A model generated the notes under the pieces. It ran no database searches, was not told where the DNA came from, and was given only the letters and a program-made list of their open reading frames with translations. The position numbers were made by a program, and so were the translations under genes. From Candidatus Poribacteria bacterium (GTDB taxonomy: Bacteria; Poribacteria; WGA-4E; WGA-3G): 64,000 bases of DNA. Positions 34,660-53,171 of this stretch are shown in pieces (position 1 is the first letter of the stretch; each line of letters begins with the position of its first letter). The stretch is from the NCBI GenBank assembly GCA_022827185.1, contig JAJDTM010000046.1, forward strand, positions 68,644-132,643. Direction: 5' to 3'.

Positions 34660-34714
34660 GAACTCCGTAGTAGGGTCGAGGTAACCTCGCCCCTACAGGT
34701 GCCGCTGCATACAT

Positions 34715-35554
34715 TTAGAAGCGCGGGTTGAAGAGATAATCGTAATCGTCTATTTTTTCTTTAGCGAAGTCAATAAACTCGGCATTATGGTCGAGATCAC
34801 TATTTTCAAAGGCGGCTTCGCATCCAGTTTTATACTTCAGTTTACGGTTGGATCCGAGCCAAGAGACACGGTGAATCATTGCTATCATGTGGCGAGGCTT
34901 GTCGGACGGGTTGGGGACACCTCGGTGCCAGAGTCGCATGTCTCGAATCAGGATGCTTCCCTTCTTCGCATTTCCACGAATGGGTGGCGCGATTTTACGG
35001 CGTGCCTCCTCTTCTTCAGCCTCTATGCCGCGCCCACTGACCACCAGATGTGAGCCTGGCCAGAGTTCAACACTGCCATTCTCCTCCGCTGTATCCTGAG
35101 GTGAAATATTAACAACGACCTCTGTGGTCGGGTGTGCGACCTCCTGATCTGGCCACAGATGGGCACCGTCTCTGTGGAGTGGTTGGGTTGTGCTACCGGG
35201 ACAGTTCGTATTGCCGTTGTAAAAGTTGTTATAGAGGCCGGGACCGAGAAGTTCTGTCGTTACTTGTATGACATAAGGATTCGCAACGATGTCTCTAAAG
35301 ATATAGGGTGCGAAAGGTGGGGGGCCCTGCTGAAGGTGCCCCTTAAGTCCGCCCGCCCCACCCCATTTTTCGGCTTTAATGAGGATCTGCGAATCTGCGT
35401 CCATCCGTTTGTGGAGAATGTCCAAGTGTTCATGGCTAACGACGTTTTCTAAGACCACATAGCCGTCGACGCGAATCGCCTTGACGGCTTGTTCCACATG
35501 GGCATCTGTCAATTTTTCTGCTTCTAATTCTTTCGGTTGAACGGTTATCTCCAT
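34715..35554 (-). CDS. Phytanoyl-CoA dioxygenase (PhyH) family 2OG/Fe(II) hydroxylase
   Basis: HxD (LHRDGAH) plus a distal His (LWHRG), and a size (~279 aa) consistent with PhyH/EctD-like enzymes. Confidence 0.6.
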   Translation of the reverse strand: MEITVQPKELEAEKLTDAHVEQAVKAIRVDGYVVLENVVSHEHLDILHKRMDADSQILIKAEKWGGAGGLKGHLQQGPPPFAPYIFRDIVANPYVIQVTTELLGPGLYNNFYNGNTNCPGSTTQPLHRDGAHLWPDQEVAHPTTEVVVNISPQDTAEENGSVELWPGSHLVVSGRGIEAEEEEARRKIAPPIRGNAKKGSILIRDMRLWHRGVPNPSDKPRHMIAMIHRVSWLGSNRKLKYKTGCEAAFENSDLDHNAEFIDFAKEKIDDYDYLFNPRF

Positions 35555-35568
35555 AATGTTGTTTTCCT

Positions 35569-36921
35569 TTACCCAAAAAATTCAACATAGAGGGCTTGAA
35601 CAGCGGTCTCCATATCTTCGGATTTTATACCGAACATCATGCTGACTTCGTTGGAACCTTGATTAATCATCTCAATGTTCACATCGGCACCGGCTAACGC
35701 ACTTGTGGCGCGGGAGGCGATGCCGACAGTGTGACGCATGCCTTCACCGACAACCATAATCAGAGCCAGGTTTCGTTCTACGAAGACGTCTTCAGGTGCA
35801 AGTGTTTGTCGAATTTGTTCAATAACCCTTTTTTCTTTCTGCACTGACAGGTTTTCTTCGCGGATAATGACTGACATGTTATCTATACCAGACGGAACGT
35901 GCTCAAAAGAGATTTCTTCGGCTTCCAGTATCTGCAATAATCGTCGGCCGAACCCGATTTGACGGTTCATCAGGTATTTGCTGAGATATATACAGCAGAC
36001 GTTCTCCATTGCAGCGATACCAACGACCGGAATGTCTGTTGATTTGCGGTTCGGGAGGATTCGGGTGCCATCTGCGTCTGGATTGTTAGTGTTTCGGATG
36101 TTAACAGGTACGTGTGCGCGATAGACGGGTTCAAGTGCTTCATCATGGAAGACAGAGAATCCGGCGTAAGAGAGTTCACGCATTTCACGATAGGTTAACT
36201 CGGCGATCGGTGTGGGGTTTTTAACGATAGACGGATTCGCCGCAAACACAGAATCGACATCGGTAAAATTCTCATACACCGCCGCCCGAACAGCACTTGC
36301 AAGGATAGCACCTGTGATGTCTGAACCGCCGCGCGAAAAGGTGACGATGTTTCCCTGTCTTGAGTAACCGAAGAAGCCGGGGAAGATAGTGATACCCGGA
36401 TGTTCTTGCAGCGTCCGCAGGCGATTATACGCTTCCGGTAAGACTTGTGCATTACCGGGTTCATCGGAAAGCAATAAACCCGCGTCCTTCGGATTCACAT
36501 AATGTGCATCTACACCGCGTGCCTGCAGCACTTGTGCGATAAGGCGTGCGCAGTTGTCTTCACCCCCTGCTTTCATTGTGTCCATATAGAGATCCGCATC
36601 AGTTGTACTATGTTCCAACCGTTCCGTCAGATCGCGGGCGATGGGTTCAACAACCTCTGCGGAGAGTCCTAATTCAGCGGCGATGCTTCGGTAACGTTCA
36701 ATCACTTCGGCGCATTCCGAGGCACCAAGTTTTCCAGCGAGACGTTGTGATGCTGCGGCAATGAGCAGATCGGTCACTTTGATGTCTTGGCTGTGCCGTT
36801 TTCCGGGTGCGGAGACGACGATGAGGCGGCGTCCCGGGTCAGCGGTGATGATGTCGCAAACTTGGCGCACTTGTTCCGCTGATGCGAGGGAACTCCCGCC
36901 AAACTTTGATACTTTTAACAA
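35569..36921 (-). CDS. lysC: Aspartate kinase
   Basis: An N-terminal KFGGSS motif, the amino-acid kinase fold and C-terminal ACT-like regions. Confidence 0.85.
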   Translation of the reverse strand: MLKVSKFGGSSLASAEQVRQVCDIITADPGRRLIVVSAPGKRHSQDIKVTDLLIAAASQRLAGKLGASECAEVIERYRSIAAELGLSAEVVEPIARDLTERLEHSTTDADLYMDTMKAGGEDNCARLIAQVLQARGVDAHYVNPKDAGLLLSDEPGNAQVLPEAYNRLRTLQEHPGITIFPGFFGYSRQGNIVTFSRGGSDITGAILASAVRAAVYENFTDVDSVFAANPSIVKNPTPIAELTYREMRELSYAGFSVFHDEALEPVYRAHVPVNIRNTNNPDADGTRILPNRKSTDIPVVGIAAMENVCCIYLSKYLMNRQIGFGRRLLQILEAEEISFEHVPSGIDNMSVIIREENLSVQKEKRVIEQIRQTLAPEDVFVERNLALIMVVGEGMRHTVGIASRATSALAGADVNIEMINQGSNEVSMMFGIKSEDMETAVQALYVEFFG

Positions 36922-36948
36922 TCCGGATCCTCCAATCTTTTATTTTCA

Positions 36949-37036
36949 GGACTTAAGCATTTTTCTATGATAACCTATGTATTACGCACTGCAGGTGGGG
37001 TTTCAAACCTCACCTGCAGTGGGGGCTGCGTAAGTC
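36949..37036. repeat. Family-B element, full copy
   Basis: GGACTTAAGCATTTTTCTATGATAACCTATGTATTACGCACTGCAGGTGGGGTTTCAAACCTCACCTGCAGTGGGGGCTGCGTAAGTCC. The stem is mutated relative to 26184 but complementarity is preserved. Confidence 0.7.
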
Positions 37037-37086
37037 CTAATTTTTTGTGACACCGTGAAGTCGTTTAGGGTTTCAGCGTGAATAAA

Positions 37087-37806
37087 CTATTTTTTTAGAT
37101 GTGAAACATGTGTGCCTTCGGCTGGCTCAAACTGTTGTGAATTTTCGCCTTTGTAATGGCATATAAAACTCCGCCGCCATCGGTCGTGCGTCTTGTTCAT
37201 ATAGGAGCCGTGGATAACCTTACCATCAAAGAAAAGCGCGTCCCCGGGCGACATGTCGATGCCCAATTCTTTAGCGTTCTTCGGTTTGACGGCTTGTACA
37301 TTTGTAAACGAAATAGCGGTATCCGCCGCTTCAACGGAGAACAGTCCATGTTGATGGGAACGTGGAATCAGCACCATACGTCCAACAGCGTCGTCGGATG
37401 TATCCAATGCGACCCAAACGCCGATGAGGGGGTCTATGGTGATGTACTGCTCATCTTGATGGAGTGCCTGACCGCGTGCACCGGGCGGTTTGAAGTAGAT
37501 CATTGTTTGTAACAGCACTGGCGTATCGTCAATGAGTTGTTCCGTAATGTTAAGCAGGTTGGTATCTGCTGCCCATTCTTGGGTGAGTTCGTCCCAGTTG
37601 TGCATATTAATCATGCGTGGGAATTGGTGATTTGGGTCATCGGCGTGGTCGGTTGTGCCGCCGGAGTCGCCGGGTTTCGGACCTTCTGCACGGCGTTTCA
37701 TGTAGTGCTCGCGCATTGACGTTACTGTGGCTGGGTCAAAAAGATTTGGAACGACCACGAAGCCTTGTTCTTTGTAGTGGTTTTGTTGTAGATGGGTTAG
37801 GTGCAT
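37087..37806 (-). CDS. PhyH-family 2OG/Fe(II) dioxygenase (ectoine-hydroxylase-like)
   Basis: HxD (ALHQDEQ) and a distal His (VIHGSY). Confidence 0.55.
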   Translation of the reverse strand: MHLTHLQQNHYKEQGFVVVPNLFDPATVTSMREHYMKRRAEGPKPGDSGGTTDHADDPNHQFPRMINMHNWDELTQEWAADTNLLNITEQLIDDTPVLLQTMIYFKPPGARGQALHQDEQYITIDPLIGVWVALDTSDDAVGRMVLIPRSHQHGLFSVEAADTAISFTNVQAVKPKNAKELGIDMSPGDALFFDGKVIHGSYMNKTHDRWRRSFICHYKGENSQQFEPAEGTHVSHLKK

Positions 37807-37990
37807 GGAAAGTGCTCCCGCAGATTGCCGATCCGTTTTGGATGCTGTTTTCGAGTCTATCTTTTAATTTTATGGTAATTTCGGATATTTGTCAAAGTTT
37901 TTTCTCTCTATGTGTGGAAGGTTTGGTTTCTTGTGATAGCACCCAAACCAATTAACGCTCACCACCCGTGAAATCAACAAACTCTATGCC

Positions 37991-40900
37991 ATGCCAGCAC
38001 TCCTAATTTTTCAGCACGGGCAGTCCTTGACCTTCGCTATTATCAACCGTAGACCGAGTCAGCGAGACGGGGCCCGCTATGTGCTTGAAAAGATGGTACT
38101 TATCAAGGATATTGACGTTGCCACTCCGCACCGCGCACACCTTGACATCTTGGCAGACCTGTCGCTTGATGCCCTCTATCACCGGCACGAATTCACGAAC
38201 TTCTTGGAGCTCCATCAGGCGTGGCAGCGGACGTTGGACACCTCCGAACTCAACAGACGTTTCTTCAAAGAGATTGCCGATTGGTATTTCTGGGCAGTTG
38301 ATAAGGTGACGTTTCCATCGGATGCAGGCGACGACAAGACTGTTCGTAACGCGACCTGCATCATCCGTTTGATTACACGGCTGATCTTCGTCTGGTTTCT
38401 CAAAGAGAAAAACCTTGTGCCGGACGCGCTTTTTAACGAGGAAGCTATTGCGGAACTGCTCACAAGTCTGGATGCTCAGGAAAGCACCTATTACAAAGCC
38501 GTTCTCCAAAACCTATTTTTTGCAACCTTGAATCAGGAGATGAACACACCTGAAAAACCGAACACCCGCAAGTTCCGAGGGGAGGGCCGGCAGCACTATA
38601 ACATCACTTCGCTCTACCGCTATAAGCGTTATTTCAAGGATCCAGACGCGGCACTGCGGCTGTTTGAGACGGTCCCGTTCCTCAACGGTGGTCTGTTTGA
38701 GTGTCTGGATAAATCCGCACCGGATGATGCGAAAACGATCTTGCGTATAGACGGTTTCTCTGATAGAGACGACAACCCGCTCTATGTGCCAAACGAACTC
38801 TTCTTCTCCGAACCACAGGCGGTCAATCTCAACGCCGTCTATGGCACGAAAAATAGCAGGTATACCGTGCGTGGATTAATCCATATCCTCAACCGCTACA
38901 AATTTACGATTGCAGAGAACACACCGATAGAGGAAGAAGTCGCATTGGATCCCGAATTGCTCGGACAGGTCTTTGAAAACCTGCTTGCGGCGTTCAACCC
39001 CGAAACCGGCACGACTGCGCGTAAACAGACGGGTTCGTTCTATACACCCCGCGAAATCGTCAACTACATGGTGGACGAATCCCTCATCGCTTATCTCAAA
39101 AACACAGTTCGTAGTAGGGCAATTCATTGCCCGTCGGAAACCAAACTCCGTCATCTCCTATCCTACAACGACGAACCCCACCAATTCACCGATACTGAAG
39201 TTGAACATCTCATCAACGCCATAGACACACTGAAGATTCTGGATCCCGCCTGCGGCTCTGGTGCGTTCCCGATGGGCATCCTGCACAAACTCGTCTTCCT
39301 GCTCGGTAAACTTGACCCGCGCAACGCTCAGTGGCGACAACGGCAAATTGACCGCGTCCAAGCTGCCATTGCTACATCAGAGAAGATTGACGATAGCACC
39401 TTCCGTGAAAGTGCTATTGCTGAACTGGAACGCGAAATAGAGAGCATCAACGATGCATTTGAACGCAATGCACTCGACTACGGCAGAAAGCTCTATCTCA
39501 TAGAGAACTGCATCTACGGTGTGGACATCCAACCTATCGCGACACAGATCGCTAAACTCCGGTTTTTTATCTCGCTGATCGTTGAGCAGAAAATTGACGA
39601 TACGCGCGAAAACCGCGGGGTGCGTCCGTTGCCGAATTTGGAGACGAAGTTTGTCGCAGCGAATACGCTCCTCGGTGTAGAGAAACCCGAACAGATGATG
39701 CTTCGCAACCCAGGGATAGACAGCAAAGAGAAGGCATTAGCGGAGGTGCGCCGTCGGCACTTCACTGCGCGAACACCACGCACGAAAGATCGCTACAGAC
39801 AACGCGATGCGGAACTCCGCGCCGAAATCAGCGGATTGCTCAAACGGGACGGGTTTCCGAGTGAGACGACTGAAAAGATTGCTCATTGGGATCCATACAA
39901 CCAGAACGCCTCCGCAGATTTCTTTGACCCAGAATGGATGTTCGGTATTACGGAGGGGTTTGATGTCGTGATTGGCAACCCGCCTTACGTCCGTCAAGAG
40001 AAAATCAAGCATCTCAAACCCACGTTGAAAAAGCACTATACCTGTTACACAGGCGCAGCCGACCTCTACGTCTATTTCTATGAGCGCGGGCTGCAACTGC
40101 TGAGTCCAAGCGGTATCCATACGTTTATCTGTTCTAACAGTTGGCTGGATGTCAACTACGGCGCGCCGTTACAGAAGTATCTCTTAGATAACACAGCGGG
40201 TGCGGTTATCTGCCATAGCGAAGCGGAACGCGAATTTGAGAGTGCCGACATCAACACCATCGTTAGCCTTCTCCAAAACGGCACCCCCGATGCCGATTCT
40301 CACTTCCGCTTTCTCACCTTCAAGACGTTCATCGGCGATCCAGATATAGAAAATCGTCGAGAGCGGACACGCACGTATACCGAGTTGGGACAAGCAGGCA
40401 CGCGGGACAACAGATACACAGGCGACAAATGGGGTGGGAAATACCTCCGCGCCCCGGACATCTACTGGACGATTTTAGAGAAAGGCAAAGATAAACTGGT
40501 ACGCCTCGGTGATGTTGCCGAGGTGAGGCGAGGGTTCACAACCGGTGCAAATGAATTTTTCTATCTTGACGCGGATCGGGTTCAGGAATGGGGTATTGAA
40601 TCGGAATATCTGAGGCACGTTATCAAAAGTCCGCGTGAGTGCAAAAGTATCCGTGTGGATCCGAGTCAGTTGCAGTTCAAGTTGTTTATGTGCCATGCAG
40701 ACAAGGCAGCATTGACAGGCACTGCGGCGTTAGAATACATCAAATGGGGTGAATCGCAAGGGTATCATCAGCGACCGAGTTGTAAAGGACGGGTGCGTTG
40801 GTGGGATTTGGGTGAAGAGTCTGGAAATAGTATTTTTGTTAAAGAAGCAGATGAAACTTCGGCGGTATTTTACAACCCTGACAACTATCTCGTTGATTGC

Positions 40901-41275
40901 CGTCTCTACTATGCGAATCTTTCTAATCACGTCCTTTTGTTCTTAAATTCTGTCATTGGCGCAATGTTCTTTGAGCTATACAGCCGTTCAGGACTTGGCA
41001 AAGGTGCAAGAAGTATGATGGTTTCGGATTATGAGGATGTTCCAACTTTAGAGAATATAAATGTAGATAAGAAAGCGACTGAGTTGGTTTTAAGGCAAAT
41101 TTGCCCTTTGTCTCCCCGAAAATTTGCTAATTCTGAATCTGAGTGGTCTACCCTTGACGCAATCATCTTTGATGCCCTTGATCTCACACAAGGTGAACGG
41201 GATGGTGTGTATGAAGCGGTTGTTAATCTGGTGGAATCTCGGTTGCGGAAGGCGCGGAGTTTGAAGGGGAAATAG
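37991..41275 (+). CDS. Eco57I/MmeI/PglX-like gamma-class N6-adenine DNA methyltransferase with its own C-terminal TaqI_C-type target-recognition region; no recognisable nuclease domain
   Basis: 1094 aa. The N-terminal helical region carries PFLNGGLFE. Motif X is GSFYTPREIV, motif I is LDPACGSGAFPMG, and motif IV is VIGNPPYV. The C-terminal TRD-type region reads VRLGDVAEVRRGFTTGANEFFYL ... RWWDLGEE ... LLFLNSVIGAMFFEL. Confidence 0.75.
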   Translation: MPALLIFQHGQSLTFAIINRRPSQRDGARYVLEKMVLIKDIDVATPHRAHLDILADLSLDALYHRHEFTNFLELHQAWQRTLDTSELNRRFFKEIADWYFWAVDKVTFPSDAGDDKTVRNATCIIRLITRLIFVWFLKEKNLVPDALFNEEAIAELLTSLDAQESTYYKAVLQNLFFATLNQEMNTPEKPNTRKFRGEGRQHYNITSLYRYKRYFKDPDAALRLFETVPFLNGGLFECLDKSAPDDAKTILRIDGFSDRDDNPLYVPNELFFSEPQAVNLNAVYGTKNSRYTVRGLIHILNRYKFTIAENTPIEEEVALDPELLGQVFENLLAAFNPETGTTARKQTGSFYTPREIVNYMVDESLIAYLKNTVRSRAIHCPSETKLRHLLSYNDEPHQFTDTEVEHLINAIDTLKILDPACGSGAFPMGILHKLVFLLGKLDPRNAQWRQRQIDRVQAAIATSEKIDDSTFRESAIAELEREIESINDAFERNALDYGRKLYLIENCIYGVDIQPIATQIAKLRFFISLIVEQKIDDTRENRGVRPLPNLETKFVAANTLLGVEKPEQMMLRNPGIDSKEKALAEVRRRHFTARTPRTKDRYRQRDAELRAEISGLLKRDGFPSETTEKIAHWDPYNQNASADFFDPEWMFGITEGFDVVIGNPPYVRQEKIKHLKPTLKKHYTCYTGAADLYVYFYERGLQLLSPSGIHTFICSNSWLDVNYGAPLQKYLLDNTAGAVICHSEAEREFESADINTIVSLLQNGTPDADSHFRFLTFKTFIGDPDIENRRERTRTYTELGQAGTRDNRYTGDKWGGKYLRAPDIYWTILEKGKDKLVRLGDVAEVRRGFTTGANEFFYLDADRVQEWGIESEYLRHVIKSPRECKSIRVDPSQLQFKLFMCHADKAALTGTAALEYIKWGESQGYHQRPSCKGRVRWWDLGEESGNSIFVKEADETSAVFYNPDNYLVDCRLYYANLSNHVLLFLNSVIGAMFFELYSRSGLGKGARSMMVSDYEDVPTLENINVDKKATELVLRQICPLSPRKFANSESEWSTLDAIIFDALDLTQGERDGVYEAVVNLVESRLRKARSLKGK

Positions 41276-41340
41276 ATTAAATTCAGTTGATATTTGTTCA
41301 CCAGATGTGGTATTATTAACCCAAAAGAGAGGATTAGGTA

Positions 41341-43398
41341 ATGGCGAAAAAAATATCAAAGCGTGTTAAAACACTAAGTGGGTTTATGAAATGGGTGGAA
41401 CAATTCAACGATGGGCAATATCTGTTTCGAGGTGTTTCAAAACACACTCACAAATTGGAAGCATCTGCTTATCGTCGTCTGCCAGAAGCGGAAAGAAATA
41501 ATCAAAATAAACTCCTCAAAATCAATCAGGAGTTGATAGATAAAGCACGTCTTCTGGGGCACGATCAGAAAGATGGACATTACCTTTCTGATTTAGAACT
41601 GTTGGCAGAACTTCAGCACTTTGGTGCTGCTACCTGCTTGATAGATTTCACACGTAGCGCGCAGATCGCACTATGGTTTGCTTGCCAACAGAGTTCGACT
41701 GGAGAAGCAAATGGAAAAGTCTTCGCTGTGCGTTCTGACGATCCCGTACTCTTTAGAACCATTACCCCTAAATTGGTAGTCGAAAAAGACATTGGTTACT
41801 TTTTTGAAGAGGATGAGAGCGGGATATCTCCGCTATATCAATGGCAACCCAAGCAACAGAATAATCGTGTTATCGGCCAGCAATCCATTTTTATATTCGG
41901 TGGATCTCAAATTGAGGTGGCAGCAGAATGTGTAATTCTAAAAAGTAGTAAATCAGAAATTCTGGATTCTTTGGACAACTCTGCAGGTATCACTGAAGCG
42001 AGTATATATCCTGATTTTGACGGTTTCGCGCGTCTACATGCCCAAAATAAGCCATACATTGAACCGAATGTTCAAAGTTATCTGCAACGCGGGACCGAAG
42101 CACACTTAGAAGGCAAGCTTGATGATGCAATTGCCTACTACAGTGAAGTTATATCACTACAGCCAAACACTTCTACGCTAACTATAGCTTACCAAGGTCG
42201 TGGTTTTGCGTACTTTTTCAAACGTGAGTTTGACCCCGCTATTAAAGACTTTACCAAGGCAATAAATTCTAATTCCAAAGATGCCGTAACTTATTACAGT
42301 CGTGGGACAGTCTATAGTCTTACACGCGAATTTGATCTCGCTATCGCTGACTATACTAAAGCTATAGAACTTAATCCTGAGTTTGCTGAAGTCTACGTTC
42401 ATCGTGGTGCTGCTTACATTGACAATAACAAAGTTGATTTGGCCCTCAAGGACTATAACAAAGCGATGGAGCTTAAACCCGATGACCCTGTTACTTATGT
42501 CAGGCAAGGTATTGCTTACGGCAAAAAGGGGGAAATTGACACAGCTATTAAAAATCTTGGTAAGGCAATAGAACTCAATCCAAAATTTGCAGAAGCCTAC
42601 GCTACTCGTGGTGCTGCTTACATTGACAAAAAGGAACTTGATTTGGCTATTAGCGACTGTACGAAGGCGATAGAATTAGACCCAACTGATGCTACAGTAT
42701 ATTGCTACCGCGGTCGTGCTTACAACGAAAAAGGCATTTTTAACGAGGCGATTGATGACTTGACTCAAGCGATAGAACTGGATCCACATCTTGCCGAAGC
42801 TTACCTGAACCGTGGTAATGCCTACGATCATAAGAAAGATTTCAACAAGGCGATTGGTGATTATACTAAAGCGATAGAACTGGATCCAGATGACACTGAC
42901 TTCTACTGCTATCGCGGTTTTGCTTACCAACGCAAAGGTGATCTCAATTTGGCAATTGATGACTTTACCGAAGCGATAAAGAGAAATCCGAACTTTGCTG
43001 AAGCTTATCTGGATCGTGGATGTATTTATGGAGAAATAAGAGATTTTGACAAGGCGATTAATGATTTCACCAAATTGGTACAACTCAGACCTGATGATAG
43101 CAGAGCATACACTGCTCGCGGTGTTACTTACCGCAGGAAAGGTAATTTTAACTTAGCGATTAATGACTTTAGTAGAGGAATAAAAGTAGATCCAGATGAT
43201 GCTAAAGCTTATTACCACCGGGCCGATCTACGATTACACTTAAGGGAATTCAAAAAAGCCAAATCAGACCTAACAACTGCCAGAGACATGGGGGTAAATA
43301 TTATCGCTGCATTCCATAATAGCTACGAAAGCATTGAAGATTTTGAGCAGAAAACCGATATTCAGTTACCAGAAGACATCGCCGCGCTCTTGACCTAG
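41341..43398 (+). CDS. FRG-domain protein fused to ~13 TPR repeats and a conserved C-terminal module
   Basis: An N-terminal FRG motif (QYLFRGVSKHTHKLEASAYRR) and 34-aa TPR units (..A..Y..A..LDP..A.AY..RG.AY...). The C-terminal ARDMGVNIIAAFHNSYESIEDFEQKTDIQLPEDIAALL is shared with three neighbouring TPR proteins. Confidence 0.65.
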   Translation: MAKKISKRVKTLSGFMKWVEQFNDGQYLFRGVSKHTHKLEASAYRRLPEAERNNQNKLLKINQELIDKARLLGHDQKDGHYLSDLELLAELQHFGAATCLIDFTRSAQIALWFACQQSSTGEANGKVFAVRSDDPVLFRTITPKLVVEKDIGYFFEEDESGISPLYQWQPKQQNNRVIGQQSIFIFGGSQIEVAAECVILKSSKSEILDSLDNSAGITEASIYPDFDGFARLHAQNKPYIEPNVQSYLQRGTEAHLEGKLDDAIAYYSEVISLQPNTSTLTIAYQGRGFAYFFKREFDPAIKDFTKAINSNSKDAVTYYSRGTVYSLTREFDLAIADYTKAIELNPEFAEVYVHRGAAYIDNNKVDLALKDYNKAMELKPDDPVTYVRQGIAYGKKGEIDTAIKNLGKAIELNPKFAEAYATRGAAYIDKKELDLAISDCTKAIELDPTDATVYCYRGRAYNEKGIFNEAIDDLTQAIELDPHLAEAYLNRGNAYDHKKDFNKAIGDYTKAIELDPDDTDFYCYRGFAYQRKGDLNLAIDDFTEAIKRNPNFAEAYLDRGCIYGEIRDFDKAINDFTKLVQLRPDDSRAYTARGVTYRRKGNFNLAINDFSRGIKVDPDDAKAYYHRADLRLHLREFKKAKSDLTTARDMGVNIIAAFHNSYESIEDFEQKTDIQLPEDIAALLT

Positions 43399-43416
43399 CC
43401 AACGGACGAAAAAGAT

Positions 43417-43697
43417 CAACAAACCAAGAGTTTTCGCAGACTTCCACAACGCAGATGCAAAAGGCAGGGGTCCGATTGAACTGTGCCGGACAGCGGCGGA
43501 CCTTGAACGTCAGAAAATTATGCTGCGAAATGGATAGGCTCTTATTATCTATAGTGAAGAGTTGGAGGTTGAACGCATTGTTTGCTACTCCGAAAAAGAA
43601 AAGTTGTGGACAGGGGTGATTGATTGGGATGCCATTCAAGAGATAAAACCTGTCCCCTCTCAAATAACTCCGCAAATCCGTGACATAGCGCGGTAAT
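43417..43697 (+). pseudogene. Degenerate copy of the small protein gene found intact at 50794..51078 (no start codon, in-frame TAG)
   Basis: Nucleotide homology to 50806-51078 is ~90%, but ...CTGCGAAATGGATAGGCT has a TAG where the intact copy has CAG (Q), and there is no in-frame ATG. Confidence 0.45.
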
Positions 43698-43926
43698 GTG
43701 ATATACGCCTACACCTGATGAGATGGCTTCTTTTCAACTAATGCCTTAAGCATAGCATCGGGACGCGGTATTGTCTCATCGCGGATTGCACAGATTTCGC
43801 AGATTTTTTGAATCTGTATCATCTAGCATTATAGGTGACCGGTATGAAATCCGCGTCATCCGTACTATCTGTGCAAATCCGAGATTCAGACGATTGCGAG
43901 ATTTCATCCTCAAAGAAATTGGGATT

Positions 43927-46581
43927 ATGGAGAAAAAGCCGGTGAGTAAACCGTTAAAAGTGTTTATTACCTATTCACATAAAAATACAGCAGAAAAGGA
44001 CGAATTGATAACACGTCTTGCCCTTCTCAAACGTGAAGGCATAATAAGCATTTGGCATGACAACGAAATTCTGCCAGGTGACAAGTGGCGTGATGCTATC
44101 TTCAGCAATCTTGCGGATTCCGACCTTCTGCTCTATCTTACCTCTGCTGATAGCCTTGAATCTGAAAACTGTAATAAAGAATTAGCAGCGGCGTTAAACA
44201 CAGAGATAAGGGTGATTCCAATTATCCTTGAGCATTGTGATTGGCAAAACTATCAACTTAGTGACTTCCAAGCTCTTCCTGACAGAGGTAATCCTATTGA
44301 CGAATGGCAACCTGAGAGTAAAGGGTGGCAAAATGTAGTGGATGGTGTCCGAAAAGTTGTTGAAAGGCAGTCTGAGAATTGGTTTTCTGAAACCTTTGAG
44401 AAAGAACTTCGTGCTGAATCAGAGTTCCACCGTGGGAATGTTCAACAGCTGCTTGGGCAGCTAGAAATGGCAATAGAAGCCTATTCACAGTCCATTGACC
44501 TTAAACCTCGTGTTGCTAGTTCTTATAACAATCGCGGTGCTGCTTACCAGAAAAAAGGAAATTTTGATCGCGCCATTGAAGATTTTAACATGGCAATTGA
44601 ACTGAAAAACAACTATAGCCAAGCTTATTACAATCGTGGGCTCACTTACGACGAAAACGGTGAAATTGAAAAAGCCCTTGAAAACTATAATAAAGCGATA
44701 AAACTCAAACCTGATTATGCTGAAGCATATAGCAATCGAGGCAATATTTATAAGAAAGAAAGCAAGTTTGATAGAGCTGTCGCAGACTATAACATAGCGA
44801 TAAAACTCAGACCAGACCTTGCCGAGGTTCATTACAATCGCAGTGTAATTTACGAAAATGAAGGCGATTATGATAGGGCCATCCAAGATTGTAACACAGC
44901 GATAAAACTCAAACCCGATTTTCCCGAAGCGTATAACAATCGCGGTAACGCTTACATAGGAAAAGGTGAATTTGGCAATGCTATCGTGGATTATAATACG
45001 GCGATAAAACTCAAACCCGATTTTCCCGAAGCGTATTACAGCCGTGGTACTACTTATGGTATAACTGGCGATTCTAATAGCGCAATTAAAGACTTTGACA
45101 AAGCGATAAAACTCAAACCTGATTTTCCCGAGGCATACAGTAATCGCGGTAACGCTTACGTCTTTGAAGGCAAGTTGGAAAACGCTCTCAAAGACTACAC
45201 TGAAGCAATACAACTTAAACACGACTATGTTGATGCTTACTGTAATCGCGGAGCAGTTTATGGCATAACAGGCAATTATGACAGGGCAATCAAAGATTAT
45301 ACCGAAGCGATAAAACTCAATCCACACCATGCCAACGCCTATAATAATCGTGGAATGGCTTGGTTACACCTGCAAGAGTGGGATAGAGCCAAAACCGACT
45401 TCACAACTGCTAAACAGTTAGGCGTTGACATCATTGCAATGTTCCATAATTCCTACAAGGATGTTGAGACGTATCAAAAGAATCGGCTCGTCAAATTGCC
45501 GGAGGACCTTGCACTGCTGCTGACGCAACGCAGGCGGGATCGCTATCCGAAGCTGCAGAAAGTGTTGGATGCTGACGGCAATCCGCTGGAATTGCCGGAC
45601 GTGGTGAATTTACGCGAGCAGCTACGCAATGCTGGTCCCCAGCTAAGCGAGTACATCAATGCGAAGTCTGCCTTCGGTATTAATACGACCCCAACCGAGG
45701 TATTTGTGGTAGACAAAACGACACGGGATGAACTCATTGGGGCACATCCCGCATCTGCTGATATTTTGAAGCCGTTTTTGCACGGACAGGATATCAGACG
45801 TTGGTACGTTGATACACCGCAGCACTGGTTAATTTTTACCCACCGCGGTATAGCAATAGACGACTACCCGGCAATTTTGAAGTATTTGGAGAGTCATAAG
45901 GAGAGCCTACAGAAAAGAAAGGGTAAACAAGCATGGTACGAGTTACCGGCGTCTCTTGACCATGCGGAACGTTTTGCACAACCGAAACTGGTTTGTCCAA
46001 ACACCTATAACCATCACACTTTTGCGGTTGATACAGAGAGTTTTTATTACGGGAATACGTCTTACCTTATCCCAACCGAGGAAAAATGGCTTTGTGGGCT
46101 TCTCAATTCCCGGACTGTAGAGTGGTTCTATTCACAGGTGTCGAACCAATTGACGATTGATCCGCTTCGGGCGCGCAGCGGGTATATCCAACAGATTCCG
46201 ATTCCCGACATCACGCCAGTTCACAAAGCACTCATTGCTAAAATCGTTGACTACCTGATCTCTCTGCAGCAGCAACCGGAGATAAACAGCAAAGATTTGA
46301 AGTACGCCCGCGACCATGTGATGCTTGGATACTTTGAGCGCGTTATTGATGGATTGATTTATGAGGCTTACCTACCTGCGGAACTTCATAAGAGCGATAA
46401 AGTCTTCTTGCAACCGTTATTGGACGAAGGGTTGCCACTCATTGAAGAGATTCAGGGCAATAAAATGACTGCTTTCCGGGACATCTTTGAGCGGCTATAT
46501 GACAGGATGCATCTTGTCCGACGCCACCTTTATTATCTGGATGTTATAAAACCTATCCGCATTATTCAGGGGAAACTGTGA
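43927..46581 (+). CDS. TIR-domain protein fused to TPR array, the shared post-TPR module, and a C-terminal TaqI_C/Eco57I-C-like DNA target-recognition domain
   Basis: The TIR reads KVFITYSHKNTAEKDELITRL...ISIWHDNEILPGDKW...SENCNKEL. About nine TPR units follow. The shared module is AKQLGVDIIAMFHNSYKDVETYQKNRLVKLPEDLALLL. The C-terminus has GINTTPTEVFVV...GQDIRRWYV...HWLIFTHRG..YPAILKYLESHKESLQKRK..QAWYELP...KLVCPNTYNHHTFAVD..YY.NTSYLIP...LCGLLNSRTVEWFY...IQQIPIPD. I trimmed the start to ATG at 43927 (MEKKPVSKPLKVFITYSHKN). Confidence 0.65.
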   Translation: MEKKPVSKPLKVFITYSHKNTAEKDELITRLALLKREGIISIWHDNEILPGDKWRDAIFSNLADSDLLLYLTSADSLESENCNKELAAALNTEIRVIPIILEHCDWQNYQLSDFQALPDRGNPIDEWQPESKGWQNVVDGVRKVVERQSENWFSETFEKELRAESEFHRGNVQQLLGQLEMAIEAYSQSIDLKPRVASSYNNRGAAYQKKGNFDRAIEDFNMAIELKNNYSQAYYNRGLTYDENGEIEKALENYNKAIKLKPDYAEAYSNRGNIYKKESKFDRAVADYNIAIKLRPDLAEVHYNRSVIYENEGDYDRAIQDCNTAIKLKPDFPEAYNNRGNAYIGKGEFGNAIVDYNTAIKLKPDFPEAYYSRGTTYGITGDSNSAIKDFDKAIKLKPDFPEAYSNRGNAYVFEGKLENALKDYTEAIQLKHDYVDAYCNRGAVYGITGNYDRAIKDYTEAIKLNPHHANAYNNRGMAWLHLQEWDRAKTDFTTAKQLGVDIIAMFHNSYKDVETYQKNRLVKLPEDLALLLTQRRRDRYPKLQKVLDADGNPLELPDVVNLREQLRNAGPQLSEYINAKSAFGINTTPTEVFVVDKTTRDELIGAHPASADILKPFLHGQDIRRWYVDTPQHWLIFTHRGIAIDDYPAILKYLESHKESLQKRKGKQAWYELPASLDHAERFAQPKLVCPNTYNHHTFAVDTESFYYGNTSYLIPTEEKWLCGLLNSRTVEWFYSQVSNQLTIDPLRARSGYIQQIPIPDITPVHKALIAKIVDYLISLQQQPEINSKDLKYARDHVMLGYFERVIDGLIYEAYLPAELHKSDKVFLQPLLDEGLPLIEEIQGNKMTAFRDIFERLYDRMHLVRRHLYYLDVIKPIRIIQGKL

Positions 46582-48017
46582 AAATAACCAATATTAAGAT
46601 TAAAAATTTCAGAGCTTTTCCGCAAATCTATCACATCAATCTTCATAATGCGGGGAAGAACTTACTTGTTTATGGAGAAAATGGGAGCGGAAAATCGTCA
46701 CTGTATCTCGCCCTAAAGTATTTTCTTGAATCCGGTGTGCCCGAAAATAGCGAGGATGACAGGAACCGGGCGTTTGAAACCCATCAAAATATCTTTACCG
46801 AGGATCTTGGTCATATCAAACTTCATTTCCGTTCAGAGCCTCAACGAGAGAAAGATACCTATGAGTGGTCAAGAGATGTTAAACAGACAACTGACGAGCT
46901 GATTATTGAAACGTCAAAGGCGAAAGGCTTTCTGGACTACAAGGTGCTATTGGAAACACACTATCTTCATCGTGAAAACGATATTGTGAATTTGTTCGAT
47001 CTGTTGGTTGAAGTGCTGCTGGCAAACACTATCAACCCCAGGACAGATAGACCTCTCACAGCGGACTGGAACGCCATTCAGCCTCCGTTTCCTCGCAGAG
47101 GTGCAAAACACCAAATTGCGGACCTGGAAAGACAGATAGTCAACTTCAACAGGGAGTTAGCAAACAGGTTAGCAGAATTAAGTCCGAAGGTGTCCGAAAT
47201 TCTCAACAAGTTTGGATACAAAGTCGCGCTTGACTTTGATTTTCAAGGCGTTACGTACAACCAGGGTGAGAAAACGCTTGATAACCGAGAGATTCTCTTA
47301 AAAGTTGAATTTTTTGATACAGATATACCTTCACATCACCGATTCCTGAACGAGGCAAAGCTGTCAGCAATTGCGATTGCTATCTATCTTTCGTCAATCT
47401 TGTGCTTGCCAGAACCAAAAGAAGGCATGAAAATTCTTGCGCTTGACGATGTGCTGATAGGTTTGGATATGTCAAACCGTCTGCCGGTTCTTGACATTCT
47501 GAACGAGTACTTCTCAGATTACCAAATCTTCTTGACGACTTACGATAAGGCGTGGTATGAGATTGCTAAACAACGGACAGACCAAAAAGACTGGAAATAT
47601 GCTGAATTCTATTTCTCCCAAACCGATGAGTATGAAATTCCGGTCTATGCAGAAGATAAGGCATACCTTGAAAAGGCGCGGGAATATCTTGATTTGAATG
47701 ACTACAAAGCCTGTGCAATTTACGTCCGAACCGCTTTTGAAGCGGTAATCAAACGATACTGTGAGAAAAGGAATCTTGCCATTAAGTATCGTGAAAATCC
47801 GAAAGACTTGAGAAGTGAAGATTTTTGGGTACCGATAAAAATGGAAATGGACGAAGCGGGCGACCTCCTTTTAGATCTAAGAGTTGTTGACAAAATTGAA
47901 TTGGCACGAAAATTTATCCTAAATGAACTCAGTCATGATACCTTCGTGAATATCTACAGAAAGGAACTTGAGGATGCAATTGACGCGGTTGCGGAACTTG
48001 AAGCTGCTTTAGCATAG
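46578..48017 (+). CDS. SMC/RecF-like ABC ATPase (AAA_15/AAA_21-type), translationally coupled to the TIR gene
   Basis: A GTG start overlaps the TIR-gene TGA (GTGA). The N-terminus reads IKIKNFRAF..., Walker A is GENGSGKSS, the D-loop/Walker B is ILALDDVLIGLD, and the signature/His region reads QIFLTTYD. Confidence 0.7.
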   Translation: MKITNIKIKNFRAFPQIYHINLHNAGKNLLVYGENGSGKSSLYLALKYFLESGVPENSEDDRNRAFETHQNIFTEDLGHIKLHFRSEPQREKDTYEWSRDVKQTTDELIIETSKAKGFLDYKVLLETHYLHRENDIVNLFDLLVEVLLANTINPRTDRPLTADWNAIQPPFPRRGAKHQIADLERQIVNFNRELANRLAELSPKVSEILNKFGYKVALDFDFQGVTYNQGEKTLDNREILLKVEFFDTDIPSHHRFLNEAKLSAIAIAIYLSSILCLPEPKEGMKILALDDVLIGLDMSNRLPVLDILNEYFSDYQIFLTTYDKAWYEIAKQRTDQKDWKYAEFYFSQTDEYEIPVYAEDKAYLEKAREYLDLNDYKACAIYVRTAFEAVIKRYCEKRNLAIKYRENPKDLRSEDFWVPIKMEMDEAGDLLLDLRVVDKIELARKFILNELSHDTFVNIYRKELEDAIDAVAELEAALA

Positions 48018-48044
48018 AGCTAAGCCGCGCTAAGATAATTCATA

Positions 48045-48266
48045 ATGATTCAGAATAATCAAGAACTTGAAACAACGTTGGAACGCATTGAACGCTTTCA
48101 AAAGATAGTTGAGAAACTCAAAGCGTCTGAAACAAATCCACGGAATTATGAGTTATCCACGGGCGGTTTCCTTGCGGAAATCGACCGGATGAAACTGGAA
48201 GTGAGAAAGTATCTATCCATTCATTCGAGCGAATTGATAGAACAAATTGCTGAAGGCAGTACCTAA
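48045..48266 (+). CDS. Small coiled-coil protein of unknown function
   Basis: A 73-aa ORF between the ATPase and the next TPR gene with no clear SD. It may be a real small adaptor or may be spurious. Confidence 0.3.
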   Translation: MIQNNQELETTLERIERFQKIVEKLKASETNPRNYELSTGGFLAEIDRMKLEVRKYLSIHSSELIEQIAEGST

Positions 48267-48337
48267 AAATAAGCAAAATCAATCCGCGTCATCCGTGAAA
48301 TCCGCGAAAATTCGCGATTTGCGGCGTACTCGCCCAA

Positions 48338-49663
48338 ATGCGACCTGCATTCAGACAAGCAAAAAGTCAAATTCCTCAAGTCACTTGCATCTTGGAGAAA
48401 AACATGGGAAAAAAACACAGTCAAAAACGCGCCGAGATGTATTACAAGCACGGGTTCGCTCAAAGGAAAAAAGCGGATTATGAGCGTGCTATTGTAGACT
48501 TTACCAAAGCGATAGAACACAATCCAGAAGATGTCTTTGCCTATACGAATCGGGGTGTAGTTTATTACAACAAGGGTAAGTTTTACCGTGCAGTCGATGA
48601 CTTTAGCAAAGTCATAAGCCTCACACCTGATGATGCATTTGCCTACTATGGCCGCGGGATGGCTTACCGCAATCTGCTGATTTTTGAGAAAGCCATCCAA
48701 GACTTTAGCACGGCGATACGTCTTAAACCCGATACGGCTGCTGATGCCTATACCGAGCGCGGTGTAACTTATCACACCAAAGGTGATGTAGACCATGAAG
48801 GTGATGTAGACCATGCTATTGAAGACTATAATGCTGCGATAGCACTGGATCCAGCGTTTGCACAGGCTTGGACGGCGCGCGGTAAAGCTTATCGTGATAA
48901 AGGCGAGATTGACAAGGCAATTGAAAATTACAACAAGGCGATTGAACTCAACCCAGAACTCGCTGAGCCTTATACCTACCGCGGTCTTATCTACACCGAA
49001 CAAGGCGCGGTAGACAAAGCGATTGAAGATCATAGCAAAGCGATCACGTGCAACCCAGAGTTTGCCGAAGCGTACGTTAATCGAGGGCAGGCTTACTACG
49101 CCAAAAACGAATTGGACCAGGCGATAGCAGATTATGACAAAGCCATAGAGATCGATTCAGAACTTGTGGAGGCATACACGTATCGGGGCAACGCGTATCG
49201 CGCTAAAGTCGAGTTAGACAGCGCAATTGCGGATTATACCGAGGCACTAAAACTCAGACCAAAGATTGCTGAATTCTATTACACACGGGGTGAGGCTTGG
49301 TTGCTTGCGAAAGGTTGGGAAGAGGCGAAGACCGACTTGACAGCTGCGCTCCTACAAGACATGGATGTCGCCGCTGCGTTTCACAATATCCACGGGAGCA
49401 TTGCTGCCTTTGAGGAGAAGATAGGGAGTCGTTTGCCGAGAGAGATTGTAGTATTATTGACACCGCGGAGCGAACCGTTTGAAATTGATAAAGATGCGCG
49501 GATCGCGTTGGGAATGAAGTATTATGGAAACGACGAACTCAGCAGTGGACTCGCAGCGCGCCTTGCAGGTGTCCCACGCGAAGATTTCTGGTACCTAATG
49601 GGGGATTACGGTCTCTCTCTCCTTACCCTTGATGAAGAAGAGCACGCCAAGAGCGGATTTTAA
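48338..49663 (+). CDS. TPR-repeat protein with shared post-TPR module and C-terminal UPF0175-type antitoxin domain
   Basis: TPR units are followed by AAFHNIHGSIAAFEEKIGSRLPREIVVLL. The C-terminal ALGMKYYGNDELSSGLAARLAGVPREDFWYLMGDYGLSL matches the UPF0175 antitoxin fold pattern. An alternative start is ATG at 48404. Confidence 0.6.
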   Translation: MRPAFRQAKSQIPQVTCILEKNMGKKHSQKRAEMYYKHGFAQRKKADYERAIVDFTKAIEHNPEDVFAYTNRGVVYYNKGKFYRAVDDFSKVISLTPDDAFAYYGRGMAYRNLLIFEKAIQDFSTAIRLKPDTAADAYTERGVTYHTKGDVDHEGDVDHAIEDYNAAIALDPAFAQAWTARGKAYRDKGEIDKAIENYNKAIELNPELAEPYTYRGLIYTEQGAVDKAIEDHSKAITCNPEFAEAYVNRGQAYYAKNELDQAIADYDKAIEIDSELVEAYTYRGNAYRAKVELDSAIADYTEALKLRPKIAEFYYTRGEAWLLAKGWEEAKTDLTAALLQDMDVAAAFHNIHGSIAAFEEKIGSRLPREIVVLLTPRSEPFEIDKDARIALGMKYYGNDELSSGLAARLAGVPREDFWYLMGDYGLSLLTLDEEEHAKSGF

Positions 49664-49666
49664 AGA

Positions 49667-50158
49667 ATGCCGATACAACCAGTTGTTAGCAATAACAGTC
49701 CGCTTGTGGGACTTTTGGGGATCAATCTGCTTTCTCTGTTGCGAGATCTTTATACAGAGGTATGGATTCCACGAAAAGTTGAAAAGGAGTTTCTCAGAAA
49801 GGATCCGATAGTCCGCCGGGAGGCACTCGAAAATGCTCCCTGGATTAAAACTGTTGATTTAACGGATCCGCGAACCGCTGCGGTTCATGCGGAACTTGAT
49901 GAGGGTGAAGCCGAGGCATTGGCTCTTGCTAATGAACATGACGCTCGTCTCGTTCTTCTTGATGAAAAGAAAGGAAGACAGAAAGCCAAGCAAATTGGAT
50001 TAACGGCTATGGGGATAGTAGGCGTTTTGCAAGAGGCGAAGGAAGAAGGCTTGATTGATGCCATCAAGCCGCTTTTAATTCGGTTGCAGGATAACGGAAT
50101 CCACCTGAGCGAATCGCTCATCAATAACGCCCTACAAGACGCAGGTGAGGCAGATTAG
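49667..50158 (+). CDS. DUF3368-type PIN-domain protein (toxin partner of UPF0175)
   Basis: The conserved acidic residues of the DUF3368/PIN fold are present (VVSNNSPLVGLLGI..., ...DEGEAEALALA..., LVLLDEKKGRQKA). It starts 3 nt after the TPR-UPF0175 stop. Confidence 0.65.
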   Translation: MPIQPVVSNNSPLVGLLGINLLSLLRDLYTEVWIPRKVEKEFLRKDPIVRREALENAPWIKTVDLTDPRTAAVHAELDEGEAEALALANEHDARLVLLDEKKGRQKAKQIGLTAMGIVGVLQEAKEEGLIDAIKPLLIRLQDNGIHLSESLINNALQDAGEAD

Positions 50159-50397
50159 CAGGCGGGTTTACAACGCACACTCACGTTGTATGGAAGTGAC
50201 AGAATAAATTAATTGCTACCAGATATTGCCGAAATGTTGACGTAGTAGTAGGAGCAAAGCCTAATCCACCGCTTCAAAACCGCTGCCAGTTTCAAGTAGG
50301 AGAGCATTCTGTCTGCACGATTTATCCCAGCAATCCTTTAATCCTGATTCAGACAATATTATACATACCGCTCTGCTGGAGGAGAAGGAAAAACGAC

Positions 50398-50790
50398 CAT
50401 AGTTGTCAATTTAGGGATCCGCCAGGTCCGGTAGGTTCGGTTTCCCAACCGAACCGGACTGCCCCAAGACCGGCGGATGCTTTCTCTCAAGGGATGTGTC
50501 GGTTGAGTTTGTGTGTATAACCCGGGGCAGTTAGGAAACTACACCATAGGTGTCAATTTAGGGTTTTTTCACGGCATTTGGGAATGGTTAATAAACATGC
50601 CGCCCTTACAGGGCTTGGTTTTTGCTTGAACATGCTGCTATAAACATATCGTCCCTCCGGGACTAAAGAGGGTTATGAAGTCTTCAAGGTTTTCGCGTCG
50701 TATCCGGTTCGGTTAGTAAACCGAACCTACCGGGTCCGGGGCTGAGGTGGTTATTTTTTTAAAATTGACACTTATGGGTCAGAAGAAAAA
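50398..50790. repeat. Repeat-rich intergenic block: family-C palindromes (50423-50465 and 50704-50741, mutually inverted), 21-bp direct repeats ACCATAG(T/G)TGTCAATTTAGGG (50398-50418, 50543-50563) and an inverted partial copy (50765-50780)
   Basis: Read directly from the sequence. It separates the two TPR-UPF0175/PIN modules. Confidence 0.6.
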
Positions 50791-50793
50791 ACG

Positions 50794-51078: not shown

Positions 51079-51133
51079 TGTGATATACTTCTACACTACC
51101 TTTGAGAAACCTGCCTTGTGAAGGAGAGAACTG

Positions 51134-53015: not shown

Positions 53016-53171
53016 CGGGCATGTTTACACAATCCTATAAATCTTGATTTAGAACAATAGAATATGCAATATGCCGCGGTTGTAGACCCACGTTATCGTT
53101 GGCAATTTAAGGTGACTTGAAAAGAAAGGTATGCTATACTTAGGCAAAATTTTATTGATGGAGTTTATTTT

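Follow-up and report, generated by a model that had tools for sequence, protein, structure and literature searches.

Gene Organization of the Locus

A 64,000-nucleotide stretch of a Candidatus Poribacteria bacterium genome (assembly GCA_022827185.1, contig JAJDTM010000046.1, positions 68,644 to 132,643 of the forward strand), referred to below as the window, was analysed for a DNA methylase gene and the genes that follow it. The interval carries four co-directional genes on the + strand, which encode a methylase shortened at its N-terminus, an FRG-TPR protein, a protein fusing a TIR domain, a TPR array and a methyltransferase-type target recognition domain (TRD), and an ABC ATPase, with the following positions in the window:

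37991-41275, + strand: truncated methylase, 1094 aa (Pfam, motif positions, orthologue alignment)
41341-43398, + strand: FRG and TPR array protein, 685 aa (Pfam FRG 2.9e-15, PADLOC PDC-S15 1.3e-30)
43927-46581 (open reading frame from 43771), + strand: TIR-TPR-TRD protein, 884 aa from ATG 43927 (Pfam, profile match)
46578-48017, + strand: Rad50/SMC-type ABC ATPase with HEPN-like tail, 479 aa (Walker motifs, Pfam, Foldseek)

The last two genes are treated here as a two-gene module, which was followed through 80 loci obtained by a profile scan with its TRD (one genome per species), each locus being surveyed by tblastn and by its open reading frames (ORFs). These loci comprise 71 from Poribacteria, five from Latescibacterota, one from Gemmatimonadota, one from Curvivirga and two unclassified, and many lie on complete chromosomes. 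A second sample, taken from the methylase side, consists of eight loci (the window, L001, L002, L005 and L088-L091), of which the methylase of L005 may belong to a different subfamily. The PADLOC scan of the window covered its 19 large ORFs.

Methylase Motifs and the 441-bp Deletion

The 1094-aa ORF displays the gamma-class N6-adenine motifs quoted in the preliminary description of the sequence, each at its place, including motif X (GSFYTPRE, 39032-39055), motif I (LDPACGSGAFP, 39239-39271) and motif IV (NPPY, 39977-39988), together with its own TRD at approximately 40241-41272, labelled 'class A'. The N-terminal helical region with PFLNGGLF (38675-38698) was confirmed as well, and in front of it the surviving ORF keeps the rear half of a DUF4391-like domain. 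Pfam matches were obtained to Eco57I (1.4e-37) and N6_Mtase (2e-11), the top PADLOC model was the type IIG model REase_MTase_IIG (7.3e-78), and the M_Eco57I_C match of the orthologue P0002 reached only E 0.0024. The PDB relatives closest by sequence are CamA, BREX PglX/BrxX and M.TaqI, with the CamA alignment spanning residues 656-940 of the methylase, from the catalytic domain into the TRD. No nuclease family was matched by the 1094-aa protein in the Pfam and PADLOC model scans.

Comparison by blastn with the syntenic locus L001, which shares the PhyH, amino-acid kinase and PhyH genes 5' of the methylase, placed a clean 441-bp deletion at the junction 37959/37960 of the window: L001 6699-9942 corresponds to window 34714-37959 (96%), and L001 10384-13726 to window 37960-41275 (89%). 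Gone with this segment are 58 bp of leader, in which AAGGAAA resembles a Shine-Dalgarno site, as well as the methylase start codon and the first 128 codons. Nine in-frame codons directly 5' of the present ATG (TREINKLYA, 37964-37990, + strand) match residues 130-138 of P0002, whose N-terminus aligns by tblastn at 94% identity from window position 37964, i.e., 27 nt 5' of the ATG; by this alignment the original reading frame survives in them. Close homologues from Ca. Poribacteria, 70-92% identical over the whole query, are nearly all 1231-1271 aa long and extend about 145 aa further at the N-terminus. A consensus scan of the + strand 5' of 37991 gave no promoter-like site.

No relaxed selection was seen on the truncated allele, as the lineage-specific ratio of nonsynonymous to synonymous changes on the window branch was 11/46, against 16/50 for L001 and 23/43 for L076, both intact orthologues. 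Either the deletion is therefore recent, or selection still acts on the shortened enzyme, which the intact ORF may encode as an active orphan methylase. By tblastn, no leftover of the missing N-terminus turned up in any other part of the window. Recurrence of the deletion was also considered and set aside for P0040, the short homologue examined, which starts at the same methionine through a frameshift, with the N-terminus still there. The 'nuclease-less' state of the window methylase is a strain-specific, private lesion, and the proposal of a methylase designed without a nuclease is weakened because that state, in this genome, is a deletion.

N-Terminal Domain of the Methylase Family and an Adjoining HKD-SNF2 Helicase

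The N-domain of full-length methylases matched DUF4391 only (16 of 20 members, best E 4e-6), and none of the 20 members scanned matched a nuclease family in this region. The AlphaFold2 model of the domain is confident over residues 1-230 and displays alternating strands and helices, and a sequence profile search of the PDB with the domain came back empty. One subgroup of the alignment exhibits a D-x11-(E/D)-L-K pattern ('VELKD'); in the orthologue group of the window the acidic residue is replaced by lysine ('IKLKG'), and in another group the final lysine varies as well. Judged from the alignment, the D..(E/K)xK motif is not conserved, and the domain is DUF4391-like, not a demonstrable nuclease. 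The earlier remark that no PD-(D/E)xK nuclease domain could be found in the methylase stands in so far as neither the window ORF nor the orthologue N-domains gave a nuclease match, and it is qualified by the loss of the first 128 codons through deletion. A conventional nuclease was probably not lost from the window methylase.

In five loci an HKD(PLD)-SNF2 helicase gene adjoins or overlaps the methylase start (L002 5843-9142; L021 3-2030; L040 602-3877; L045 1-1683; L091 5696-9004), the overlap in L091 being 4 nt. Its best PADLOC model is 'C3a139 HKD+Snf2' (7.5e-127) and not DrmD. The window has no HKD-SNF2 helicase gene. This helicase is probably the restriction partner of the methylase family. 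The family itself resembles one half of a helicase-methylase gene pair, the modification/specificity subunit, which in most cases occurs without its helicase, and it does not have the appearance of a type IIG enzyme in decay. The suggestion that a TIR domain serves here in place of a nuclease found no support in these comparisons: the missing N-terminus is the private 441-bp deletion, full-length methylases coexist with TIR-TRD proteins (e.g., in L026 and L040), and the helicase that accompanies the methylase in some loci is a separate gene.

The TIR-TPR-TRD and FRG-TPR Proteins

The protein encoded two genes 3' of the methylase consists of TIR, TPR and a TaqI_C-type TRD, and the TIR and TRD noted earlier are thereby confirmed. 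Its gene probably starts at ATG 43927 rather than at TTG 43771, and the gene caller of the source placed the start at 43942. Pfam identified TIR_2 (5.3e-16), about ten TPRs and TaqI_C (8.7e-15), and the profile of the C-terminal domain matched the TRD of M.BseCI (7qw5 residues 333-573) at E 2.4e-12. In the window the TIR domain occupies approximately 43957-44440, the TPR array approximately 44500-45420, a tail 45421-45525, and the TaqI_C/MmeI-type TRD with C-terminal helices 45523-46578. The invariant TIR glutamate lies in CNKEL, with its codon at 44179-44181, and is kept in 48/48 copies.

An assembly chimera arising through the TPR repeats was considered and rejected, because one uninterrupted ORF was found in 42 of the 80 loci, many of them complete long-read chromosomes; the fusion is real. 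Two kinds of search disagree on long fusions of this TRD. A word-indexed protein search with the TRD returned 120 best proteins that are all at most 604 aa long and of which none carries a TIR, while DNA-level ORF analysis together with an exhaustive search found long fusions to be common (P0361 870 aa, P0363 936 aa, P0365 1140 aa).

Different N-terminal domains precede the TPR array of the TRD ORF among the 80 loci: TIR in 42, FRG in 10, an HNH-like domain in one (L037), and TPR only in the rest. The ORFs without TIR and FRG number about 27, all TPR-only except that of L037. At the start of this ORF (L037 8027-11059), the HNH-like domain has the pattern CxxC...H...CxxC and brings the exchangeable effectors of the scaffold to three.

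In the FRG-TPR protein of the window, the conserved tail at the end reads GVNIIAAFHNSY...LPEDIAALLT. A tail of this kind, about 45 residues long with the consensus W.xAKxDLxxA..G(V/M)DIIAxFHNxY..V..FE.K....LPEDIxxLLT, closes each of the four TPR arrays of the island, at 43300-43398, 45421-45525, about 49400-49500 and about 52250-52350, after which the protein either stops, as in FRG-TPR, or runs on into a TRD or a UPF0175 domain. The TPR array with its tail has the appearance of a portable adaptor linking effectors with sensors.

The ABC ATPase and Its HEPN-like Tail

The ATPase gene begins at a GTG that shares bases with the TGA ending the TRD gene (GTGA). Walker A (GENGSGKSS) lies at 46674-46700 and Walker B (ILALDDV) at 47433-47453, and Pfam matches were obtained to AAA_23, SMC_N and AAA_15. 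Members of the family measure 470-487 aa, and the best 120 matches share at least 70% identity. The C-terminal 120 residues (about 47661-48014) are all-helical in the model, and the residues R384-x3-E388 and R444-x4-N449-x3-H453 of this tail are invariant in 32 sequences. The tail gave sub-threshold matches to DUF4145 (E 0.0055), a family assigned to the HEPN clan (PMC3710099), and to HEPN itself (E 0.22), and Abi_C was a precomputed assignment for 8 of the 120 homologues. Foldseek retrieved the HEPN structures 1o3u, 1ufb, 2q00 and 1wol (probability 0.99-1.0, E 0.09-0.25) along with the heads of Rad50, SMC, RecN and RecF; the model is not a high-confidence one, with a mean pLDDT of only 56, and these matches therefore count as supporting evidence only. 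From the sub-threshold sequence matches and the low-confidence model, the tail is likely but not proven to be a HEPN domain. The preliminary description had overlooked this HEPN-like effector domain in the partner ATPase.

Relationship between the Two TRDs

Compared directly, the two TRDs of the window gave BLASTP E 0.14 at 19% identity and an hhalign probability of 1.2%, neither significant, and direct homology between them was rejected. Their earlier assignment to one structural family holds to the extent that each matches methyltransferase TRD models separately, and fails in that no mutual likeness was detected. Across loci, the methylase TRDs are 20-91% identical to that of the window, and the module TRD stays at 56-93%. 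Among methylases with cores at least 80% identical, correlation between the two TRDs was absent (rho 0.04, p 0.74), with L021 and L076 as counter-examples.

An exhaustive profile search placed the module TRD over its whole length, C-terminal helices included, at the end of proteins 1040-1400 aa in size (E 1e-50 to 1e-108), and it is homologous to the TRDs of 13 methylases of the family studied here (E 1e-14 to 1e-67). Because of this end-to-end homology with C-termini and with 13 family methylase TRDs, the module TRD is, by sequence comparison, a paralogue of the 'class B' methylase TRD. In the class B loci, cognate TRD pairs are no more alike than non-cognate ones (27-41% identity, the cognate partner ranking 2-12 of 12). 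The claim that methylase and TIR protein recognise the same motif is left unsupported by this diversity of the methylase TRDs beside the conserved module TRD, by the absent correlation and by the equal likeness of cognate and non-cognate pairs; as far as the sequences tell, the two TRDs do not read the same motif.

Conservation of the Module and Its Linkage to the Methylase

The ABC ATPase lies next to the TRD ORF with overlapping stop and start in 72 of the 80 loci. A methylase of this family was detected within 10 kb upstream of the TRD ORF and on the same strand in 28/80 loci, and never in another orientation (28/28); for 11 of the 21 intact methylase ORFs, the gap to the TRD ORF is below 300 nt. 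The arrangements vary from an isolated two-gene module of 823 aa and 480 aa (L009) through a three-gene operon of methylase, TIR-TPR-TRD and ATPase (L026) to a four-gene operon that includes the HKD-SNF2 helicase (L040). Seen from the methylase side, a gene for a TIR- or FRG-TPR protein follows directly in 8/8 loci sampled, and the protein 3' of the methylase ends in a TRD (window, L005, L089), in UPF0175 (L001, L090) or in nothing further (L002, L088, L091). The recurrent, oriented link between the methylase family and TIR/FRG-TPR proteins is accordingly borne out; it is genetic and not obligatory.

Every occurrence of the TRD-ATPase module falls in a sponge-associated lineage. At least four phyla are represented, with identities of 53-94% (L007-L086), a distribution that suggests horizontal spread within the sponge microbiome. 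No description of a conserved pair of [TIR/FRG]-TPR-TRD and ABC-HEPN proteins was found in the literature searched, and the two-gene module is apparently undescribed there; TaqI_C was not found in a defence context, and DUF4391 appeared in unrelated papers only.

Cassettes in the 3' Flank of the Methylase

Three further features of the window lie in the 3' flank of the methylase:

41287-41316, + strand: promoter-like site TTGATA-18-TATTAT with TG, just 5' of the FRG-TPR gene (consensus match only)
48338-50158, + strand: cassette of TPR-UPF0175 (441 aa) and DUF3368 (163 aa) proteins (PADLOC PDC-S70 1.2e-44)
51134-53015, + strand: second cassette of TPR-UPF0175 (469 aa) and DUF3368-like (170 aa) proteins (PADLOC PDC-S70 1.1e-43)

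Both TPR-UPF0175/DUF3368 cassettes are toxin-antitoxin-like context outside the core module. The DUF3368 proteins are PIN-like and are those matched by PADLOC PDC-S70. The UPF0175 proteins of L001 and L090 also have a TIR at the N-terminus (TIR-TPR-UPF0175), which puts a predicted NADase and a predicted antitoxin-like domain in one chain. In the 90-96% identical relative L001, the slot from PhyH to ThuA (window 41276-53030, L001 13727-21560) contains the same cassettes in another order and with other N-termini, a reshuffling whose sequence pattern is consistent with recombination through the near-identical TPR repeats. In other genomes the flank holds a PD-T4-4 (PDC-M47) ATPase with its partner (L091 15063-17032) and Fic and HicB-like genes (L090 and L089), and the methylase 3' flank is a general hot spot of defence and toxin-antitoxin genes. 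Elsewhere in the window, large repeat proteins at 19901-23618 and 30808-33687 (- strand) match PADLOC HEAT-ARM_XIII (a 959-aa ORF at 2.2e-52), and the gene of the 959-aa ORF displays strong internal DNA repeats in the comparison of the window with L001.

Comparison with Known Systems

PrrC and RloC combine an ABC ATPase with a HEPN domain and often reside in restriction-modification operons (PMC3710099), and PrrC is held silent by EcoprrI (PMC3710099; bioRxiv 10.1101/2024.01.29.577857). The module resembles them in an ATPase with an N-terminal Rad50/SbcC-like ABC domain and a C-terminal helical domain, likely but not certainly of HEPN type, bearing the invariant R/E and R..N..H residues, in the position of this ATPase directly after a specificity-type (TRD) gene, often 3' of a DNA methylase, and, by analogy, in a plausible logic of back-up abortive infection. 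It differs in that the ATPase is not Pfam AAA_13, in that its partner is a TPR-TRD protein with TIR, FRG or an HNH-like domain and not HsdMSR, and in that most copies of the module stand alone; the RNase activity is here a prediction. Whereas PrrC is embedded between hsdS and hsdR of the type Ic system EcoprrI, the neighbours here are a TPR-TRD gene and an Eco57I-type methylase.

With type IIG enzymes (MmeI, Eco57I, BpuSI) the window methylase shares the gamma-class motif order X, I, IV and a C-terminal TRD, and with both these enzymes and PglX it shares the Eco57I domain and the helical region with a PFLNGGLF-like motif. It departs from type IIG enzymes in having no recognisable PD-(D/E)xK domain, the N-domain being deleted here and DUF4391-like in orthologues. 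The curated NCBIfam models of BREX PglX were matched far below their thresholds (BREX_1_MTaseX 68.3 bits vs 500, BREX_6 63 vs 900, BREX_2 42 vs 400), and none of the BREX and DISARM component models, including PglZ, BrxC, BrxL, DrmA, DrmB and DrmC, found a match among the large ORFs of the window scanned. Unlike the methylase of DISARM class 1, this one matches the DrmMI models (6.8e-21) far more weakly than the type IIG models, and it is set apart from MADS by 17.9 bits for MAD2 against a cut-off of 720, with an ATPase match to mad3 (6.1e-13) no better than those to LmuB and AriA.

Among TIR systems, the module TIR is of the TIR_2/ThsB type of Thoeris (PADLOC ThsB 1.2e-29) with the conserved catalytic glutamate, and a pairing of TIR with TPR is reported for BcTir/Tpr. 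The module is distinguished from Thoeris ThsB, BcTir/Tpr and SpbK by the fusion of TIR, TPR and TRD in one chain and by the ABC ATPase partner, and no ThsA-like gene (SIR2, or transmembrane segments with SLOG or Macro) was found among the window ORFs scanned. Among ATPase systems, the LmuB model of Lamassu covers only residues 1-99 (1.3e-13) of an ATPase of 479 aa with a short insert, in contrast to the long coiled coil of LmuB, and LmuA and LmuC models had no match in the PADLOC scan of the window ORFs. An ABC ATPase with swappable effectors beside DNA-modification genes is shared with PARIS AriA/B and with HEC-in-Hma, where the idea of sensing phage anti-defence proteins has been put forward (bioRxiv 10.1101/2024.01.29.577857); here the AriA, LmuB, PtuA, GajA and mad3 models match the ATPase head only, at E 1e-13 or weaker, and the Toprim partner of PARIS is absent. 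DndH of DndFGH, which combines a TRD, an inactive methyltransferase and a restriction endonuclease as a DNA sensor beside a P-loop ATPase, provides a precedent for a methyltransferase-type TRD in a defence protein without methylation activity (PMC10853773). It is likened to the module by architecture only; it has no TIR, TPR or ABC-HEPN and keeps the inactive methyltransferase domain beside its TRDs. Membership of the locus in BREX, DISARM, MADS, Hma, Lamassu, PARIS or Thoeris was rejected, all matches being at the level of domains only.

Interpretation of the Locus

The reading adopted here, held at an even balance of confidence, is that two linked but separable things occupy the locus, namely a 5'-deleted methylase and an abortive-infection module built on a PrrC-like logic, and not a reader matched to the methylase motif. 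The gene anatomy, the deletion, the synteny statistics, the conserved residues and the absent co-variation of the TRDs are the observations on which it is built. The methylase family would comprise a DUF4391-like N-domain, a helical spacer, an Eco57I-type gamma-class N6-adenine methyltransferase and a hypervariable TRD, with its restriction-type partner, where present, presumably being the separate, translationally coupled HKD(PLD)-SNF2 helicase gene upstream. Its 3' flank would carry cassettes mounted on the portable adaptor of TPR array and tail, and in the module a first gene of the form [TIR, FRG, HNH-like or none]-TPR-TRD would be coupled to a second gene for the ABC ATPase with the HEPN-like domain. 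The module may then act as a back-up defence by abortive infection, in which the TRD-like domain would offer a surface for sensing or docking to invading DNA, to the methylase complex or to anti-restriction proteins by which phages attack TRDs of this type. The switch would be the ABC ATPase, and TIR (by NAD+ depletion) and HEPN (by RNA cleavage) would be the effectors that kill or arrest the cell. The methylase might stand to the module as EcoprrI stands to PrrC, or the two may share nothing more than mobility. All biochemical activities and the trigger are inferred.

Several points weigh against this account. The HEPN assignment rests on sub-threshold sequence matches and a low-confidence model, and Pfam AAA_13, the PrrC family, reached only 17 bits against a cut-off of 36, over ATPase residues 11-51 alone. 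Binding of DNA or of the methylase by the TRD-like domain is putative. Of the 80 modules, 52 lack a methylase of this family within 10 kb, and another ORF with amino-methyltransferase motifs is present in just two of the 52, so a guard role towards the methylase cannot be obligatory; the same counts speak against the dependence on methylation that the preliminary description had offered as one reading. The very many TPR proteins of Poribacteria also inflate chance adjacency somewhat, and all hosts of the module are uncultured.

The strongest competitor, which is nevertheless rather unlikely, is mere co-location: the 3' flank of the methylase would be a recombination hot spot within a defence island, owing to near-identical TPR repeats, the module would be autonomous, and the window methylase would be a dying pseudogene functionally unconnected with it. 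Such an origin agrees with the differing content and order of cassettes in the window and the 90-96% identical L001, with the occupation of the same flank by PD-T4-4, Fic, HicB and UPF0175/DUF3368 in other genomes, with isolated modules such as that of L009, and with the loss of the promoter-proximal leader and Shine-Dalgarno site from the window methylase. It is difficult to reconcile with a methylase that is upstream on the same strand in 28/28 cases and within 300 nt of the TRD ORF in 11/21 intact copies, with a TIR- or FRG-TPR gene next to the methylase in 8/8 methylase loci, and with a module TRD that is paralogous to TRDs of the same methylase family.

A more specific proposal, for which we claim only a small likelihood, takes the module TRD as an 'integrated decoy', i.e., a copy of the TaqI_C-type TRD of the methylase family that would be bait for anti-restriction factors of phages (DNA mimics or Stp-like peptides) or for unmodified invader DNA, the ATPase transmitting the signal and firing the TIR NADase and the HEPN RNase. 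If true, it would be a bacterial counterpart of the integrated decoys of plant TIR-NLR proteins, and if the bait reads the methylation state, it would amount to a methylation-dependent immunity that executes by NAD+ depletion and RNA cleavage, not by DNA cutting.

The model of the preliminary description, in which the methylase marks host DNA and the TIR-TPR-TRD protein reads the same motif when unmethylated and, with the ATPase, triggers NAD+ depletion in an RM/BREX-like scheme with TIR replacing the nuclease, is now improbable. The oriented and often operonic synteny of methylase, TIR-TPR-TRD and ATPase in 28/80 loci accords with it, as do the genuine methyltransferase-type TRD of the module, a methylase family without a demonstrable in-cis nuclease and a truncated methylase without relaxed constraint. 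These points are outweighed by methylase TRDs that swap between unrelated classes beside a conserved, uncorrelated module TRD, by the absence of detectable relatedness between the two TRDs of the window, by 50/80 modules without any recognisable methylase within 10 kb, by about 27/80 TRD ORFs without TIR and FRG, and by a window methylase without its original start codon and ribosome-binding site. That sponge symbionts are rich in TIR and TPR domains is usually put down to host manipulation. The corresponding explanation, that these are 'eukaryote-like proteins' acting on the sponge host with an irrelevant neighbourhood, can be set aside as highly improbable, since the proteins carry a fused methyltransferase TRD or UPF0175 antitoxin-like domain, form pairs with PIN-like DUF3368 proteins or are translationally coupled to an ABC ATPase, and adjoin a DNA methylase.

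Under the reading of a 5'-deleted methylase beside a separable abortive-infection module, and provided that this module serves in defence, a methyltransferase TRD standing free of any methyltransferase would represent a new type of sensor, triggering TIR and HEPN abortive effectors, and the PrrC-style idea of restriction-modification with a suicide back-up would be extended beyond type I systems. The abundant 'eukaryote-like' TIR/TPR proteins of sponge symbionts need rereading, as many of them stand on the TPR adaptor, which in defence islands connects TIR, FRG or HNH-like effectors with TRDs or antitoxin-like domains. The spread over Poribacteria, Latescibacterota, Gemmatimonadota and one alphaproteobacterium points to exchange within the sponge microbiome.

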